A stretch of DNA of 63,792 nt, filler included, from Diploschistes diacapsis (lineage: Eukaryota), in assembly GCA_023645945.1 (NCBI GenBank). It is 16 parts of 16 records of this genome, joined end to end, with 100 filler letters (N's around TTAATTAATTAA, not from the genome) between each part and the next. Parts side by side here need not be neighbours in the genome. Positions count along the whole stretch, not along the records: positions 45,908 to 48,382 come from JALAIB010002190.1; 15 more parts are not named here. One strand, 5' to 3'. Under the pieces are notes generated by a model. It was not told the DNA's origin, made no database searches, and was given only the letters and a program-made list of their open reading frames with translations. Of the stretch, positions 45,079 to 53,935 are shown one piece after another. The translations under genes were made by a program, and so were the position numbers. Every line of letters begins with the position of its first letter. The stretch's first letter is position 1.

Positions 45079-46099
45079 GGTTGAACGAGTAAAACTGATG
45101 AGCTCTTAGTATGCAAGTAGAGAATCAACGCCTTTGGTGGTATGCAGCGCAATAGGTAATATCAGATCCGAGCTTGAAGATTGTTCCTTGCGGGTTTCCC
45201 TTGACCTTAAGACGGAGTCAAATGGGGACTGTCAGACTGTGAAATGCCGCAACGTCAATCTAGTATTGCAAATTTTGCAATTCCGGTATCGGCCAAGAAT
45301 ATAAGTATGTGATCGCTTGTGCTCGCTGGTCGTGTTGAGAAGAAGTCTCGGAGATGATGTGGGCTCGAGAGGGGTAGATGCGAGAGAATGGAGTGGCCAA
45401 TAGACTATTAAAGTCCTTGTTCGAGTAGAAGAAATTAGACAGATCGTCGTTCCTGTACTTGCGAAGTCAGCATCCTGTTTCGGCACCAGGTGCGAGATGC
45501 TCAGCTTGCATAGCCCTCAATGGTCTAAAAATGGACAGGATATCAGGAACGTGTACCTGCGTCTTACCCTAGTCCATGGGTACGCAAGCGGCATCTCTGC
45601 GAGGAACTTCATCGCTGGACTTACCTAGGTATTGAATGGCCGTATCCTTGAGGATGACTCTGGACCAGCGAGTCGGCAGTGTAATCGAAGAGGCGATGCT
45701 TGATCAAAAGCTCTGTGAAGAGATGAGCGGTGACCTTTTTGTTCGTGAAGGGAAGAGGTGATGGTGGGGAGGGGGGAAAGGAAGCAGTGGGCGGCATTAC
45801 CTAGCGCNNNNNNNNNNNNNNNNNNNNNNNNNNNNNNNNNNNNNNNNNNNNTTAATTAATTAANNNNNNNNNNNNNNNNNNNNNNNNNNNNNNNNNNNNN
45901 NNNNNNNATTTATAATAAATTTTTAAGGATTATAATAATTATAAATGTTTTAAAAGATTAAAACGAATAGTATTTAATAACATAAAAAAAGATATAGATT
46001 CCTACGGAAAAAATATAAGATTATATACGATAACATTATGATTTACCGAAATATGGATATAAAAATATTACGAATATTATTAAAACTATTTAACGAAAC

Positions 46100-46462
46100 T
46101 TTTGGGCAACGCATGTATTGAAGTCTAGATATCTAGAGATCTAACTAGAAGGAATAGTCTACATGTAAATTCTTATACCAATAGGATCCATTAAGCCCTA
46201 TAGACTTGCACTACTCCCGATTAGGATTAGCAAGAATCCCAGTAGGTTCAACCGAACTGAACCTGAACCTGAGGTTCAGTTAAACTTCCCAGCCATGTAT
46301 TCTACCTGCCTGCTTAATACTCCTCCACGGGCGGAACTATCGGCATGTTCATCTGATCCAGCTAGATGCCTTCTATATTAGTTTAAGTTCTTTAACGAAC
46401 ATGTCGTGTTTGACGTAATTTAATAATTTCGTTAATCCGTCGGTAATTATTTTGTTTATAAG
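46100..46462 (-). mobile_element. Copia 3' end (RNase H tail, PPT, LTR 46100-46319) interrupted by a Gypsy element
   Basis: ITDGLTK..KHDMFVKEL, then PPT GGAGGAG and TATTAAGCAGG (RIP form of TGTTGAGCAGG). Confidence 0.8.
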
Positions 46463-48382
46463 TGTTATGATCTCTATCTATACAAGGTATACACGAGTAG
46501 GATCAAGGTGGGTTTGGTCTCTGTTAGAAGAGGAGTGTGGTAGGAGAAGAAGATAGAGCAGTTATAGGTCTTAGACTGTCTTTAGAAAAAAAGTTTTCTA
46601 ATAATAGAAATAACGAATATAGATTGATCCCGAATAATAATTAAGGATATTTATAAAAATAAACACGCCTTAAACTTATGGAAGTTATGACGACGTTTTT
46701 ATATAAATCCCGTATTATTAGGTATTAGATGCCAGCCGGTTAGCGTTGCTTATCTAATAATCGCTAGATACTAGACGCTAGATAGCTGTTAGTTATCGTC
46801 TGTTAATTACGTGACCCGCGCTACCGCGATTAGTTTATATATAAAGAAGCTGGGACGTGTCAAGTAAATTATTCCGTAGTTACTTGGATCGTAATATTAT
46901 CCCTTTTTTTTAGCATTATCGGCCCGATGATTCGCCGAAGGGTCAAATATAAATATTAAATAAAAGAGAATCCCAAGTCGTGGAACAACGATGTCTTTTT
47001 TAACTCTTCGTAACCACCGTCTAGCCGACCATATCTGCCGATTTGGATTTCTTGATTCTTTTTTTTATCAAGATTGTTTTCGATTGGGTAAGGATTGTTA
47101 TAAAATATCTTTAAAATCCATCAAGTGCGTAGAATGTGTTAAGATTAATAAGAAGTATGTTAACGTTTCTTGGGATTTTATCGATCGTTTTCATTTAAAT
47201 ATACTTCGTTAGTTATAAGAAGAAGAAGAACGCGGCGAACGCTTACTTTCATAAATAATAGAAAGTTAAGTAAAGCGTCGTCGTCTTCGAAAAACTTTAG
47301 AACGCATTTAGAAACGAACGGAGGATAAGATATTCTATATATCGGAAGAAATTGTAAAAGAGGACGTTACTCGCGAAGCCGCCGGTGACTTATCGGAGGG
47401 CGAACGGCTGGACGTTGTTTCTAATGTTGCTTTCGAGGAGTCTCTTCGGTAATTTGCCTTAATATTTTCTTTTGAGATAAACTGGGAATTAGGAGATGAT
47501 GCGCTGCCGCTGGCGTAAAAGGAAGCCAACGTTTTGTCGAGTTAGTTCGTAAGTTCTGCCCGATTCTTTTTAAATTCCTTTAATTTATTTCCGTAGTTAT
47601 TTAGGTTTTCTAGTAATTTTCACGTATTTTGGTTCTCCGGGTATCCTTTTTATTTAACTAGGAACCCCCCGGGGCCACTATGTAGAATCTTCTTAACTTC
47701 GTATTCGTTTTTATTGTTAGGTTCGAAGTAAAAGGTTTCTTGTAATAGTATGTCTGGATATATTAATTCAAGATATTAGAAATAAAACATTAGGTAGATT
47801 TTAACGTCCTTTAATAACTTAAATCGATAATTAACTCGTTTAGTTTCGTTCGGTATGACGAGTTATTTATCGATAAAGAAGGGTCCGATTTTGACGTGAT
47901 CTAGTTTCTTAAAGGGTTTACGTGTCTTAAAATTATCCGTATATAAATAAACCTTATTTTCTTTTTTTAGTTAAGGATTCTTTCTTGAGATTCTAAGTCT
48001 CCTAATATTATTCAGTATCTCGTTATTAAATAATTATATATTTTAAATTTTTTTAACTTCTTTATATTTATTATTAAAGTAGTATTCGGCGTTTAATAAC
48101 AATTCAATCTAATTATTTATATTCTAATTAACGTAATACCGTAAGTACTATTCGAAAATCTAATTCATTTTTTTTATCTAACCGTTTGTTTATAGGTAAT
48201 AAACGTTTAAATACTTCAGCTTCGTGCCGAACGCTTTTATCATAGTTTTCTAATATCCTGAGATAAAGAGCTTGTTTTTATCGCTAATGATTTCTTTTAG
48301 ATATTTATGAATTTTTACAACTCGATCTATCTATATATAATGTAACTGTTTTACGTTGTAATTTTCTTTGAAAGATATATAA
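46463..48382 (-). mobile_element. RIP-degraded chromovirus (Gypsy family A): integrase, chromodomain, antisense ORF, PPT, 3' LTR 46463-46896
   Basis: Chromodomain YEVKKILHSGPGGFLVK*KGYPENQNT*K.LENL at ~47575-47705; PPT AAAAAAAAGGGATAA abuts the LTR. Confidence 0.88.
46991..47546 (+). pseudogene. Antisense ORF of the Gypsy element: Zn2Cys6-like cluster + coiled coil, RIP-damaged
   Basis: (Y)QDC-FRLGKD-C-YKISLKSIK-CVEC-VKINKK-(Y), with both Y as TAT (RIP of TGT); then an E/R-rich helix. Confidence 0.7.
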
Positions 48383-48482: not shown

Positions 48483-50131
48483 CGTTACTATTACGAGAGA
48501 CAAAAGCCTTAATCTTTTTTATTACTCTTCTATATCTCGGCGTAATAATTGTTTATTAAATAATTATATTCCGGCGTTCAGTTTAGGTTAAAAGGCGAAT
48601 ATAGATGCATCTTTTTGCGTAAATGTTCACGCCGTTATTAAATATATCGCTAAAGATGCTAGCAAAGCTAAAAAGAAGTTTAAAGCCTATTTTAAACTTT
48701 TAAAAGACGTTATCAACGGGGGCCGGCTAAATTAACTGAATCTTTTACTTTCGGCTGCATCGAAGCTGCTGAATGGTTTACTTATCGAAAGAGATTGGTC
48801 GATATAAGAGGTTTCTTATATTCTTTTAGATCTGAAGCTGGTGCAGTGCTCACGTTAATTCATTTATCTAAATATAAGATTTCTTAAACTTGCCACTTTT
48901 AATATAGAAATTCAGGAAAATTTAATAAAAAAGAAAGGATCTTCTTTAATAAAGAAATATAATAAACGTTATATTTAACGTTATCGTCGAAACGAAGATC
49001 TCGTTTAATTTAATCTATAAGATTTCTGTAACAGCGGGGGTATTGCCTAATAGGTAGCGTTATCCCACTGAGCCAAAAGACTAACCACAATGCTTTCAGT
49101 AACCCCGAAAGCACTGTTTCCCTATTACACTATATGTAGGTGCGCAGCTGTGACAGCGGGGGACCCTGTACCCCGTGCAACCATTCACGGGTGTTACAGC
49201 TATCTCTTTTTTTATAGTGCTGGCCTCTAGTACCTATCACGTCTCATATAACGTTTCGGGTATGTTAAATACTCTCAACCGTTTTTAATCTTTACGTTAT
49301 AGATTTAGAGGCGCAGATTGGTTAACCGTATATAAAGCGATTATGGCTTATTTATATATAATGAGCCCCGTAGAACCGTCCGATCCGTAACGTAATAAAT
49401 TCGGTATACGCGATGTTTAGCCTCGTGCTCGAACCAACGATTTAAGGATTAAAAGTATAACTGTAACAGCGGGGGTAATGCCTAATAAGTAACGCTATCT
49501 TATTAAGCTAAAAGATTAACTATAATGCTTTTAGGAACCCCGAAAGCACTATTTCCCTATTACACTATATATTGGTGCGCAGCTGTGGCAGCGGGGGACC
49601 CTGTACCCCGTGCGCCCACTCACGGGTTTTACAATTTCGCTCGATCGTTCGTTTAACGAAATAAAAAGATTGTAAAAATTACACGTTTAATTGAACGTAT
49701 CGTCAGTATATTTTCGTTATATAACTCTAACTTTATTAACGATAATTATAAAAAATTTTATCGATCTAAATTTATGCTTCACCATCTTTTTTAACAAAGT
49801 CCTAAAGAATTAATAGTAACTAAATGTAAAACTGAACTTCCGAGTTACGAATACGCGTATCGTTAATATATTGCGCATTTTCGTCATTCGAGAAATCCAC
49901 TGGACCTATTTAATAATGACGATAAAAGAATTAAAGATAACTTCAAAAAAACGGATATCCAATTTAATCCAGAAATTCAACCGGATTTTATCGATCTCAT
50001 TAATCGAACGAGACGTAATAATAACGACCTCGACGATAAAATTACAGATCTAGATACCCGGCCTAAAGATATAATGTATAATTAATATAAAAATTAATTA
50101 TTATTATAATAAATATTTAAAAACCGTTAAT
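48483..50131 (+). mobile_element. RIP-degraded Helitron Rep/helicase fragment hosting the TRIM and a solo LTR
   Basis: RNN.LLNNYIP..LG*KANID..C..AVIKYIAK.ASKA..ERDWS.*EV..ILL..L..CSR; after the TRIM YKKFYRSKFMLHH. Confidence 0.75.
49027..49633 (-). mobile_element. Complete 607-bp TRIM-like element, copy 2 (LTRs 49027-49198 and 49462-49633)
   Basis: TG..CA LTRs; exact 5-bp TSD ATTTC (49022-49026 and 49634-49638); PPT AAAAAAAGAGATAGC on the minus strand. Confidence 0.95.
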
Positions 50132-50322
50132 TGTTGAGCAGGCAGGCAGAATGCATGGCTGGGAAGTTCAGCTGAACCTACTGGTTTTCCTGCTAATCCT
50201 AATCGGGGGTAGTGCAAGTCTGTAGGGCTTAGTGGATCCTATTGGTATAAGAGCTTGCATGTAGATTATTCCTTCTGGTAAGACCTCTAGATATCTAGAC
50301 TCAATACATGCGTTGCCCAAAA
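50132..50322 (+). mobile_element. Copia solo LTR with TTAAT TSD
   Basis: TGTTGAGCAGG...GTTGCCCAAAA flanked by TTAAT on both sides; matches the LTR at 46100-46319. Confidence 0.85.
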
Positions 50323-51055: not shown

Positions 51056-52193
51056 AATTATAGGAATAAAATAAGAGAATATTATAAACTTATTTAATTT
51101 AAAAGGATAGGAGTTTTATTCTTTAAAGATTAATTTAACTGAACCGGCGACATTACGGTTAATTTTAATAATTCTGGATCGAATTCCGAAGGTATATCTT
51201 TTTAAGTGTTCGCGTACGTTTCGGACGACTTTAAATCTAATTTCTCCGTTAAATATCTCGCTTGCGCGTCCGCACGATCTTTCGTTAATTTAAAAATCTT
51301 TCGGTTACGGTGAATGCGACGTTTACGTTAGAAACGACGATCTTTAATTTCACGAAGTTGTTTTTTTAATTTCTTTTCTTGTTTATTATTCTCGTCAATA
51401 AGCTTTTTATTCTTTTCGATCTTATTTCTTTTAGAAAGGATAGTACGTTTAATTATTTCCTATATAATAGAAACATAATCCTTCTTATTAGACTTAATAT
51501 AGCGAATATATTTTATCGAGATAGAAGGCATCTTAATATAGTCGTGAAAGAATAAATAATGGTTATAAAATAATGTATTCAGGAAACCCCGAAGACGAAT
51601 GATAAAACTTAGGCGTTTCTTTTATATCGAAGATAAAGAAGATATCGTTGTTCCACGATTTAAGATTTTTTTTTATTTAGTATTTATATTAATCCTTCGG
51701 TGCTTATCGGGCCGACAAGATTAAAGGAAAGAAATAATATTACGATCTAAAATACTAATCGATAGTATTTAATACGTAACAACTAGTCGGGCATTTCCCA
51801 ACCATTTCTTATATATAGTCCAATTAAGGTAACACGGGTCACGTAATAAATAAAAAGTCTAAAAGACCATTCTACCCGATTATAAATAAAAAAAAAGAAC
51901 GATAATTTTATTTATTTATTCATTTACTTCATTAAAAAAATTATTAGTTATATAAAAACGTCGTTATAATCTTTATAAATCTAAGACGTGTTTACTTTCA
52001 TAAATATTTCTAATTCTTACTCGGGATCAATCTATATTCGTTACTTTTATTCTTAAAGAGCCTTCTTTCTAAAGACAGTCCAAGCCTATAACTACTCTAC
52101 CTTCTTCTCCTGCTTGCACTCCTCTTCTAACAGAAACCAAACCCACCTTGATCAATACCTCGTGTCTACCTTGTAGAGATAGAGATCATAACA
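51056..52193 (+). mobile_element. Gypsy family A 3' end: antisense ORF remnant (minus strand, start ~51645), PPT 51723-51737, LTR 51738-52193
   Basis: LTR homologous to 46463-46896; upstream GTCGGCCCGATAAGCACCGAAGG and TCGTGGAACAACGAT shared with the other copy. Confidence 0.85.
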
Positions 52194-53104
52194 ATCAATC
52201 GGATTTGTTTTTTAAATCTCGTGAAGTTTTTAAACATTCCGTAGTTATTTTCTTGGTCTTTTAAGTATGCGTCGAGGTGGGGTTTTATTTATATTAATAC
52301 GCGGTCACGTATGAATTTTGCGGCGAAGACGGTTCGTTTTTTTTATTCGTTTATGATATACGGGTTTTAATAAAAGTATATTGAAAGTTAAAGTATCTAG
52401 TATTTTAGTTTTTTTCGGTTTTTATGGAACGTTATTGGCTTCATAACTTTTATAATGGGTTTTTTATACGATTTATTTTCGTCGGGTTTATTGTTATTTC
52501 CGAGATCGTCGCTTTTAATTTCCGCGATATCCGTTATTGAGATATCGGTTTTATTTGGTGGCGTTGTTGCCCTAGGTGCTCGAGATAGTACGGATTTAAT
52601 TATCGGTGGCGATCGCCCGGTTATATTATTTAAGATATTTATTTTTGAGGGTGTTTAAGTGTTATGATTTTTATCTTTATAATATAAACACGAGATATTC
52701 ATTAAGGTAAGTTTGGTCTCGTTTAGAAGAGGAGTGTAAGTAGGAAAAAAAGGTAGAATAGTTATAGATCTTAGATTATCTTTGAAAAGAATGTTTTATA
52801 ATAATAGAAGTAACGAATATAGATTGATCCCGAGTAATGATTAAGAATGTTTATGAAAGTAAATACGTTAGGATTTATAGAAGTTATGGCGACGTTTTTA
52901 TGTATAAATCAGAATATTCGCGGTTTTGATAAACGCAGCGAGCGTTAACGCTGGTATTAGTTAAAACGATCGCCCGCGTAAATACCAGCGATAGCTGTTG
53001 TCACTTTTAGCGCTCATATGATCTGTACCACGCTGATTGGTCTATATACAAGGAATGGCTGGGAAGCGCTGTTGCGTGCCAAGCGCGATGCTTGGATCGT
53101 AACA
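52194..53104 (-). mobile_element. Gypsy family A 5' LTR (52660-53104) and gag fragment, interrupted by the oppositely oriented relative
   Basis: LTR TGTTACGATCC..CATAACA; gag-like KP.TFH.NRKKL..IL.L..YF..KRTVFAAKFIRDR..IKPHLDAYL. Confidence 0.8.
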
Positions 53105-53483
53105 GTTTTACGCGTTAAAGAACCGATATCGGCCCGTATATCAATTAATCGGAATCGTGTCAATAAATTTCTCGTTTTACGGCGAATACGTGTTCGTTAT
53201 TTTTCCGCGGGGTTAACGGAAATACATCGGGATTTTTATAAAAGTTTTTAAATAAACGTGAATAACGGCTCTAAAGGTTTAAAACTAAAAAAAAAAGAAA
53301 TAATTATAATAGATAATTATAATAATCCTCCGGGCGAACGAAAGAACTCAATTTTAGCGCCGGGCTAAGGCCGTAAGTCTATATAAGAGAAGTTTTTATA
53401 GAGGGATATCCTCTTTTCTTCTCTAGAGATTAGTTCATGAATACTATAACCATTACTAACACTACTGCATTTCATCCTTTACA
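53105..53483. mobile_element. LTR-like family B fragment
   Basis: Reverse-complement match to 31852-32160; ends ..CCTTTACA. Confidence 0.65.
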
Positions 53484-53935
53484 TAATATTTAATCTTCTT
53501 CGGGGATCTTTATCTCGATTATGCNNNNNNNNNNNNNNNNNNNNNNNNNNNNNNNNNNNNNNNNNNNNTTAATTAATTAANNNNNNNNNNNNNNNNNNNN
53601 NNNNNNNNNNNNNNNNNNNNNNNNGGGGATTGGAGGGCTGTTTCGAATAATGAGAGATTTTATGGAAGAGAGGAGAGAGTATCGCAGTGTGAAGTGGGCA
53701 GTTGCTGTGTTAGGAGATGAGTTAGGTCTACCTATCGTGAAGAGAATGAGGGAAGCCCCACGTCACATGGAAGGGGTGCCCAAACAAAAAACCGCCGGAG
53801 CGATCCAACCGTCCAATTTTCATACGAAGGCTGCTGTCCCTGACTTTTCCAGCACCGCTTACTTTAGAGCGCTGGCGCTGTCTCAATTACTTACGACACC
53901 TACTCCATCCGTTCACGGTCAGTAACTGAGTGAAG

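Follow-up and report, generated by a model that had tools for sequence, protein, structure and literature searches.

The Boty element of the fungi Botrytis and Sclerotinia carries an extra gene, brtn, in antisense orientation between pol and the 3' long terminal repeat (LTR), according to the accessible portions of the papers that deal with it (PMC8365987, PMC7264820, PMC4227169, PMC5987419). In the portion available, one of these sources also names the plant Ty3/gypsy elements RIRE2, Grande, Retand and PvRetro13 as bearers of antisense open reading frames (ORFs) between pol and the 3' LTR, with functions that are unknown (PMC7264820). Here we describe an antisense frame (aORF) in a stretch of DNA of 63,792 nucleotides from the lichen fungus Diploschistes diacapsis (GenBank assembly GCA_023645945.1), which as a whole is referred to as the window. 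The frame lies next to the 3' end of a chromovirus pol gene that is encoded on the opposite strand. With some reserve, we favor the view that it is a copy, inactivated by repeat-induced point mutation (RIP), of a conserved accessory gene of an ascomycete Ty3/gypsy chromovirus lineage, and that the protein of this gene would act as a dimeric DNA-binding regulator.

The window joins 16 contigs end to end, one of 25,127 bp followed by 15 that fall in length from 2,499 to 2,466 bp, and the 15 spacers between them (44N+TTAATTAATTAA+44N) are found within positions 25128-61326. Because of this joining, any feature that seems to cross a spacer is an artefact, and the true context of the frame is a single contig of 2,475 bp (45908-48382). 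An 'LTR pair' 6.2 kb apart that was returned by a repeat search was produced by the joining of contigs and was rejected. The antisense gene and its parts are located in the contig as follows.

46991..47545, plus strand: antisense accessory gene (aORF), a pseudogene of 185 codons when read through, with relatives found by phmmer.
47066..47158, plus strand: six-Cys motif resembling Zn2Cys6, the outer two Cys of which are now TAT (Tyr).
47174..47350, plus strand: long helix or coiled-coil region of the family (residues ~62-120), placed from the alignment and from the AlphaFold helix of the relative P0016.

From its ATG at 46991 the frame stays open through 73 codons, to a TAG at 47210. The initial annotation of this DNA had given it an extent of 46991..47546, of which the start stands and the end is reached only by reading through stops, with 47545 as the last base. 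Seven internal stops interrupt the frame on the way, every one of them TAA or TAG, and five of the seven align with Gln or Arg of the relative P0001. This copy is unable to make a protein. Residues 26, 29, 36, 46, 49 and 56 read Y/C/C/C/C/Y (codons TAT, TGT, TGT, TGC, TGT and TAT), with a spacing of Y-x2-C-x6-C-x9-C-x2-C-x6-Y, and the codons match the Cys motif with outer TAT that the same annotation had reported. A relaxed form of the pattern, [CY]x2Cx6Cx5-12Cx2Cx6-8[CY], has a single occurrence in the six-frame translation of the whole window and none in 3000 second-order Markov versions of the contig; 10% of these versions contain an ATG ORF of at least 73 codons. Since long ORFs arise that often in random versions and the motif never does, it is the Cys motif, and not the length of the ORF, that constitutes the signal.

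The aORF read through, with X at the stops, was used as the phmmer query against a database of 1.84 billion representatives. This search recovered 36 relatives at E<=1e-3, four of them at E<=1e-10 and the best at E=3.4e-25. The relatives are 85-263 aa long, plus one duplicated form of 407 aa (P0033), in which the second half of the Cys domain and the coiled coil are present twice and near-identical, either as a tandem duplication or as an assembly artefact. Alignments of the family (A2 and A4) define the motif C-x2-C-x6-C-x7-12-C-x2-C-x6-C. Cys4 and Cys5 are invariant and Cys6 is nearly so in the 39 members, and all six Cys are invariant in 15 full-length genomic loci that are treated below. 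After the Cys domain comes a SW..LD.TR motif, and then a long heptad-like region with a seventh Cys; motif and Cys are both nearly invariant, again in 39 members. The tail of the main subfamily is acidic and hydrophobic (consensus EDCPAADAxVGLSPAxW), and the protein encoded by intact elements is about 165-180 aa long.

In the closest relatives (P0002, P0003 and P0004) both positions that are Tyr in the window hold Cys, as does the sixth position in P0001; three other members that are RIP-mutated in look (P0008, P0011 and P0026) have Tyr at other Cys places. Judged from this comparison, the two outer Tyr of the window were formerly Cys. The change is of RIP type, since TGT to TAT is TpG to TpA, and the origin by RIP that had been proposed for these residues is thus upheld. 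All named members of the family are only 'hypothetical proteins', from Elsinoe australis, Sporormia fimetaria, Hortaea werneckii, Ascochyta lentis and a Flavoplaca lichen metagenome-assembled genome (MAG). Nine of ten clusters are nameless and the tenth is called 'hypothetical protein', and the ESM Atlas holds unnamed Ascomycota clusters of 210, 122 and 90 members. NCBI assigns one sequence (P0105) to the MAG of a Thermoplasmatales archaeon; it most likely belongs to a fungal contig that was mis-binned.

Related loci were collected from JGI/ENA metagenome contigs scanned with the closer alignment A3, which yielded 25 loci, mainly of one subfamily. In 24 of 24 evaluable loci the aORF is followed immediately by the C-terminal end of pol, encoded on the other strand; the 25th is not evaluable, its contig ending 76 nt past the match. 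Pfam finds RVT_1, RNase H, Integrase_H2C2, rve, SH3_Tf2-1 and Chromo domains in the related pols, with E-values from 1e-10 to 1e-39. Retrotrans_gag and a zinc knuckle appear on the next minus-strand ORF, about 0.4-0.5 kb further and past the LTR. Furthermore, three full-length elements with two LTRs have the order 5'LTR-gag-pol-(antisense gene)-3'LTR, and the LTR ends of related elements are TGTT...AACA. The host element lineage of these relatives is Ty3/gypsy chromovirus.

The aORF is full length and open in 17 of the 25 loci, open and cut by the contig end in one, and broken in seven loci of low GC content. In 11 loci, and likewise in the window, the aORF and pol share 4-201 nt at their 3' ends. 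The ratio of nonsynonymous to synonymous substitution rates (dN/dS) was calculated by the Nei-Gojobori method only for the part of the aORF outside the pol overlap, in 15 distinct intact loci (L006 and L010 were dropped as identical to others and L020 as partial). Among the 105 pairs, 39 were saturated at synonymous sites (dS), and the remaining 66 gave a median of 0.18 with a range of 0.05-0.30. These substitution patterns clearly indicate purifying selection on the aORF of intact elements. Since dN/dS is low outside the overlap, it is the protein itself that is conserved, and neither pol nor cis elements account for the conservation. We are confident that the aORF family represents a conserved, element-encoded protein gene. 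The initial annotation had proposed precisely such a retrotransposon-encoded antisense gene between the chromodomain and the 3' LTR, and had suggested that homologues be examined for linkage to Gypsy 3' LTRs and for dN/dS. The convergent arrangement in every evaluable locus, the open frames and the purifying values given above all agree with it.

An AlphaFold model computed from 39 sequences, of which P0016 was the first, has a mean predicted local distance difference test (pLDDT) score of 85.4. It contains a helix at residues 3-18, the Cys domain at 20-60, a helix of about 55 residues at 62-117, and a less confident tail; the long helix is where it had been anticipated, after the Cys motif. 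The modelled Cys domain has two short helices, each of which follows a CxxC pair. When this structure was compared to the PDB with Foldseek, Zn2Cys6 DNA-binding domains occupied 12 of the 13 highest ranks and 15 of the 20 rows listed first, with Pho7 (E 0.44), Put3, Leu3, Gal4, Ppr1, AlcR and Hap1 as top matches. Superposition with VIA-align gave root-mean-square deviations of 1.4 Å over 35 aa for Ppr1 (31% identity), 1.8 Å over 36 for Pho7, 2.1 Å over 37 for Leu3, and 1.8 Å over 33 of 33 for Cd2-Gal4. Overall, the deviations were 1.4-2.1 Å over 33-37 residues at 22-31% identity, with Z-scores of 2.4-3.0 and a Z-score of 4.0 for Put3 with the helix included. A wide structural search of the PDB returned generic coiled coils alone (Z ~6.6), which were matched to the long helix and were set aside.

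Zn_clus is the Pfam family most often matched, by 15 of the 39 members at E<=1, and a weak match to DUF3716 was seen in three of the 39. The six-Cys spacing is of the Zn_clus form CX2CX6CX5-12CX2CX6-8C. In the family consensus, the segment between Cys2 and Cys3 is F-x-x-G-x-x, and Arg/Lys residues precede Cys4 and fall between Cys5 and Cys6 (K-C-S-E-C-V-R-x-G-R-P-C). The Pro-Cys signature is thus in the half before the linker and the basic residues are in the half after it, the reverse of the arrangement in Gal4. In domains of the Gal4/Ppr1 type, basic residues between Cys2 and Cys3 contact CGG triplets.

A dimer was modelled from two copies of residues 1-125 plus four zinc ions, together with three controls. 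The homodimer reached an ipSAE score of 0.51, compared to 0.02 for the best control, with at least 81% of contacts agreeing between runs and a partner pLDDT of at least 79. Of proteins with solved structures, 21 of 30 pairs and 0 of 23 single chains attain the mark used here, subject to caveats regarding eukaryotes and a riding ligand. Contacts of residue 76 with 93-97, of 86 with 86, and of 69 with 101 describe an antiparallel pairing over residues 59-107. In this geometry the Cys of the helix (position 110) would be near the conserved C-V-x-x-S-W of the partner (57-62). The overall architecture, a zinc-like head followed by a predicted dimerising coiled coil, is that of Zn2Cys6 proteins.

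These results are consistent with a mechanism in which a small promoter with a TATA-like ATAAGC, located at the inner border of the 3' LTR, would drive transcription of the antisense gene in convergence with pol. Each chain of the protein would bind two zinc ions, and the chains would pair through the long helix. The dimer would then regulate, most likely, the LTR-driven transcription of the element itself or its integration, and the acidic-hydrophobic tail could be an activation or partner-binding part.

Several results weigh against a DNA-binding regulator of this kind. Foldseek gave no PDB match at E<=0.001, the best being that of 0.44, and the VIA-align Z-scores of zinc-cluster chains (2.1-4.0) are in the chance range for small domains. 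Modelled by itself, the Cys domain gave a poor AlphaFold structure (pLDDT 56.7). None of the 39 members reached the Zn_clus gathering score of 21 bits, the best having 18.7 bits (P0007, E=0.0019), and searching PDB sequences with a profile produced no significant match, Pho7 being the best of the Zn2Cys6 proteins at E=1.4. The family is without basic residues between Cys2 and Cys3, which are the DNA contacts in Gal4-type proteins. Finally, the heads would be separated by about 80 Å in the antiparallel model, whereas dimers of the Gal4 type, with the coils of Gal4 and Put3, are parallel. In addition, the frame of the window gave no Zn_clus match in Pfam at E<=10.

Because Zn_clus scores are under the gathering threshold and structural matches have low Z-scores, the modelled domain is best described as Zn2Cys6-like and is not filed as a Zn2Cys6 member. 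The Zn2Cys6 likeness advanced in the initial annotation is therefore retained for the spacing, and membership of the family is at most putative. The AlphaFold comparison it had recommended is likewise divided, with superposition on the Gal4, Ppr1, Leu3 and Pho7 clusters on one side and the lack of a Foldseek match at E<=0.001 on the other. That the product of the aORF is a DNA-binding regulator is a model-based proposal to which we give slightly less than an even chance.

A more elaborate form of the proposal, possible and in our judgment doubtful, is that a widespread lineage of ascomycete chromoviruses encodes an antisense Gal4-like factor of its own, conceptually a fungal counterpart of HBZ of HTLV-1. 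Its antiparallel dimer, with a head at each end, would recognise LTR sequences of the element or link two separate DNA sites, and would switch transcription of the element or of nearby host genes on or off. The domain would then be a permuted, unrecognised branch of Zn2Cys6, of which brtn is possibly a member.

Alternatively, the product could be a real element-encoded zinc protein that does not bind DNA, and that serves as an adaptor or chaperone for element RNA, Gag, integrase or a host (silencing) factor, with the long helix as a scaffold. We regard this as rather unlikely, and it is the rival that best survives. It would accommodate the Zn_clus scores under threshold, the segment between Cys2 and Cys3 that is free of basic residues, and a dimer geometry unlike that of known Zn2Cys6 factors. 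It would also agree with the account, in the accessible part of its source, that the function of antisense ORFs at such a position is unknown in all described cases (PMC7264820). However, every one of the top structural matches is a zinc cluster that binds DNA, and the succession of zinc head, coiled coil and acidic tail appears to follow the order of transcription activators.

Another explanation is that the antisense RNA is what matters, through double-stranded RNA, small RNAs or transcriptional interference with the 3' end of the genomic RNA, and that the protein is secondary. The convergent overlap of 4-201 nt with pol suits this explanation, and the transcript would be complementary to the genomic RNA over its full length. 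Nevertheless, dN/dS values of 0.05-0.30 outside pol, a frame open in 17 of 25 loci, and invariant Cys and Trp reveal selection on the protein, which makes a predominantly RNA-based role improbable. Note that an RNA role and a protein role may coexist.

A host transcription-factor gene, or a fragment of one, that happens to be beside one element or was once captured by it is very improbable. Zn2Cys6 spacing of this sort is characteristic of host factors in fungi, yet the gene is placed and oriented alike with respect to pol and LTR in all 24 evaluable loci, which come from many different samples, and no member reaches the Zn_clus threshold of Pfam. Capture of a host gene in ancient times, at the origin of the lineage, is possible. 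Least credible of all is that the frame is open by chance in DNA that is AT-rich and RIP-mutated, or that its conservation is owed only to cis elements or to the opposite strand: the frequency of equally long ORFs in random versions of the contig and the seven internal stops of the window copy would suit such a reading, which is refuted as far as computation can by the absence of the Cys pattern from those versions, by the 36 protein relatives, and by frame-specific purifying selection beyond the pol stop.

The remaining features of the element, in the first copy and in a second one, are the following.

46464..46896, minus strand: 3' LTR of 433 bp, with a boundary conserved in relatives and in two-LTR elements.
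46897..46911, minus strand: polypurine tract, AAAAAAAAGGGATAA on the minus strand and AGGGGAGGGGGATAG in intact relatives.
46915..46931, minus strand: remains of a hairpin, upstream of the polypurine tract in the sense of the element RNA; degraded in both window copies.
46946..46966, plus strand: A/T-rich TATA-like stretch, a candidate core promoter, 25-45 nt upstream of the ATG, matching the (T)ATAAGC conserved in relatives.
47542..48381, minus strand: C-terminal part of pol, with the end of the integrase core, an SH3-like domain and a chromodomain (~47566-47664); RIP-damaged and leaving the contig end.
51056..51737, minus strand: second, more degraded copy of the aORF, on contig 51056-53524, where the element is on the plus strand.
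51723-51737, plus strand: polypurine tract of the second copy, AAAGGAAAGAAATAA.
51738..52193, plus strand: 3' LTR of the second copy, with 72% identity to 46463-47010.

The pol stop (47542-47544) overlaps the aORF stop (47543-47545), and the two frames are convergent. The Pfam Chromo domain matches the pol of the window at E=0.0033, under the cutoff, and tblastn with an intact related pol detects the minus strand of the window at E=3e-33. A minus-strand integrase and chromodomain running toward a polypurine tract and LTR, as initially annotated, are accordingly present. The distance from the ATG to the LTR, put at about 95 bp in that annotation, is 94 nt, and it is 50-105 nt in 16 related loci.

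On the minus strand, the 3' LTR begins with TATTACG, the RIP form of TGTTACG, and finishes with ...CATAACA. The boundary motif TCGTAACA|C-TATCC is kept in related loci, and in the three full-length two-LTR elements the identity of the LTR copies stops exactly at ...GTAACA. At the other side, the left end of the LTR at 46464 matches position 52193, where the LTR of the second copy ends. An LTR end at 46987, suggested by a TGTTCC and by the 72% identity with the other copy, was rejected; related loci and two-LTR elements place it at 46896.

In related loci, the LTR end (...TCGTAACA) is followed by the complement of the polypurine tract (CTATCCCCCTCC), the hairpin, the TATA-like (T)ATAAGC and the ATG, in that order. 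Because this conserved TATA-like motif lies within the LTR-ATG spacer of 50-105 nt, the promoter of the antisense gene may be in the spacer rather than in the LTR, and the expression from the 3' LTR proposed in the initial annotation is uncertain. The hairpin of the relatives has a stem of 6-8 bp of varying sequence and a constant loop, GAGGAC, and is folded by at least 13 of 18 sequences. It is located 5-10 nt upstream of the polypurine tract in L001-L023 (for example, at positions 140-165 of L008). Its stems differ among loci (GCGAUG/CAUCGC, GCACUG/CAGUGC, GAUUCG/CGAAUC and others), and these compensatory changes suggest either a structured cis element adjacent to where the plus strand is primed, or a palindrome within the promoter of the aORF.

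The frame of the second copy reads IKYIRYIKSNKKDY where that of the first reads IKCVECVKINKKY, and ATA occupies the position of its start codon. Both window copies of the antisense gene are dead and RIP-inactivated. The contig of the first copy (45908-48382) has RIP indices of 1.15 for TpA/ApT and 0.58 for (CpA+TpG)/(ApC+GpT), compared to 0.82/1.19 and 0.71/1.22 for two gene-bearing contigs of the window. Sampled words of the stretch were present at a proportion of 0.91 in one lichen metagenome run (X1) and of 0.10 in a run of 'organism A' (X2), and no RNA run was among those found to contain it. When contigs of these runs were compared with the stretch, the differences between copies were transitions nearly throughout, with many diverged copies; the counts in X1 were 178 for A>G, 169 for C>T, 185 for G>A and 166 for T>C, and 2-12 for each transversion. 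A contig of X2 that apparently skips 47004-47641, with a side of 23 letters, is too weak to establish a form of the element without the gene. By itself, the result for the window is ordinary, another RIP-killed repeat copy in the assembly of a lichen fungus.

Other repeats were noted in the window. A further LTR fragment at 52651-52910 is 81% identical to 46459-46709 and is oriented opposite to the LTR at 51738-52193, which suggests nested or adjacent insertions. Two GC-rich units of about 173 bp (49026-49198 and 49461-49633), 87% identical and 435 bp apart, are found inside AT-rich DNA; the unit has inverted ends (CTGTAACA...TGTTACAG) and resembles a miniature inverted-repeat element spared by RIP. 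A separate repeat family, represented by 46100-46317 and 50134-50322, has copies that are about 90% identical, inverted, on different contigs and without RIP decay, and it is very abundant in run X1, with a depth of up to 1e5.

Among known systems, brtn of Boty is the closest. Both concern a fungal Ty3/gypsy element with a chromodomain and an extra antisense gene between pol and the 3' LTR, as far as the accessible text on Boty describes it. The likeness of the two is one of position and orientation. The name BRTN was carried by 0 of 22, 0 of 73 and 0 of 10 matches in word-indexed sequence searches, in which the word filter could miss it, and its absence is for that reason weak evidence. The accessible portions of the citing papers assign no domain to BRTN (PMC8365987, PMC7264820, PMC4227169, PMC5987419). 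The named members of the aORF family belong to Dothideomycetes and to a lichen fungus, not to Leotiomycetes. The plant antisense ORFs (aORF-3R) have the same place and the same orientation, and are conserved within families, according to the available part of their description. In contrast, their hosts are plants, Retand is listed as a non-chromovirus lineage (PMC11963269), and the accessible text mentions no zinc-cluster-like domain (PMC7264820). A literature search that was thin on subscription journals found no paper tying a zinc-cluster domain to a fungal LTR element and, beyond brtn, nothing relevant on antisense ORFs in fungal Gypsy elements.

At the level of the protein, the aORF product shares with the Zn2Cys6 factors (Gal4, Ppr1, Put3, Leu3, Hap1 and Pho7; PF00172) the Cys spacing and, in its model, the two short helices and the succession of a head and a dimerising helix. 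It differs from them in scores under the Pfam threshold, basic residues in the second half of the domain, a length of about 170 aa, an antiparallel model, and its status as a gene of a mobile element. Zn2Cys6 factors also carry a middle homology region, which the aORF protein lacks. HBZ of the human T-cell leukemia virus HTLV-1 is a basic leucine zipper (bZIP) factor that is antisense-encoded and transcribed from the 3' LTR. HBZ and the aORF product would both be small dimerising proteins of transcription-factor type that a retroelement encodes antisense beside its 3' LTR, but host, element and fold are unrelated and the comparison is an analogy only.

An antisense gene at the position of the aORF is consequently a known kind of feature, and the aORF family is new or newly characterised. 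What is added here is a family definition, a selection test and a fold hypothesis. Relative to the systems above, the family is marked by strict linkage to one element lineage, by clear purifying selection, and by a fold assignment (zinc-cluster-like head, dimerising helix and acidic tail) that makes function a testable hypothesis, that of a DNA-binding regulator encoded by a transposon. If the favored reading is true, fungal retrotransposons would carry a transcription factor of their own, which bears on how they evade or tune silencing and on how their insertions rewire host genes.

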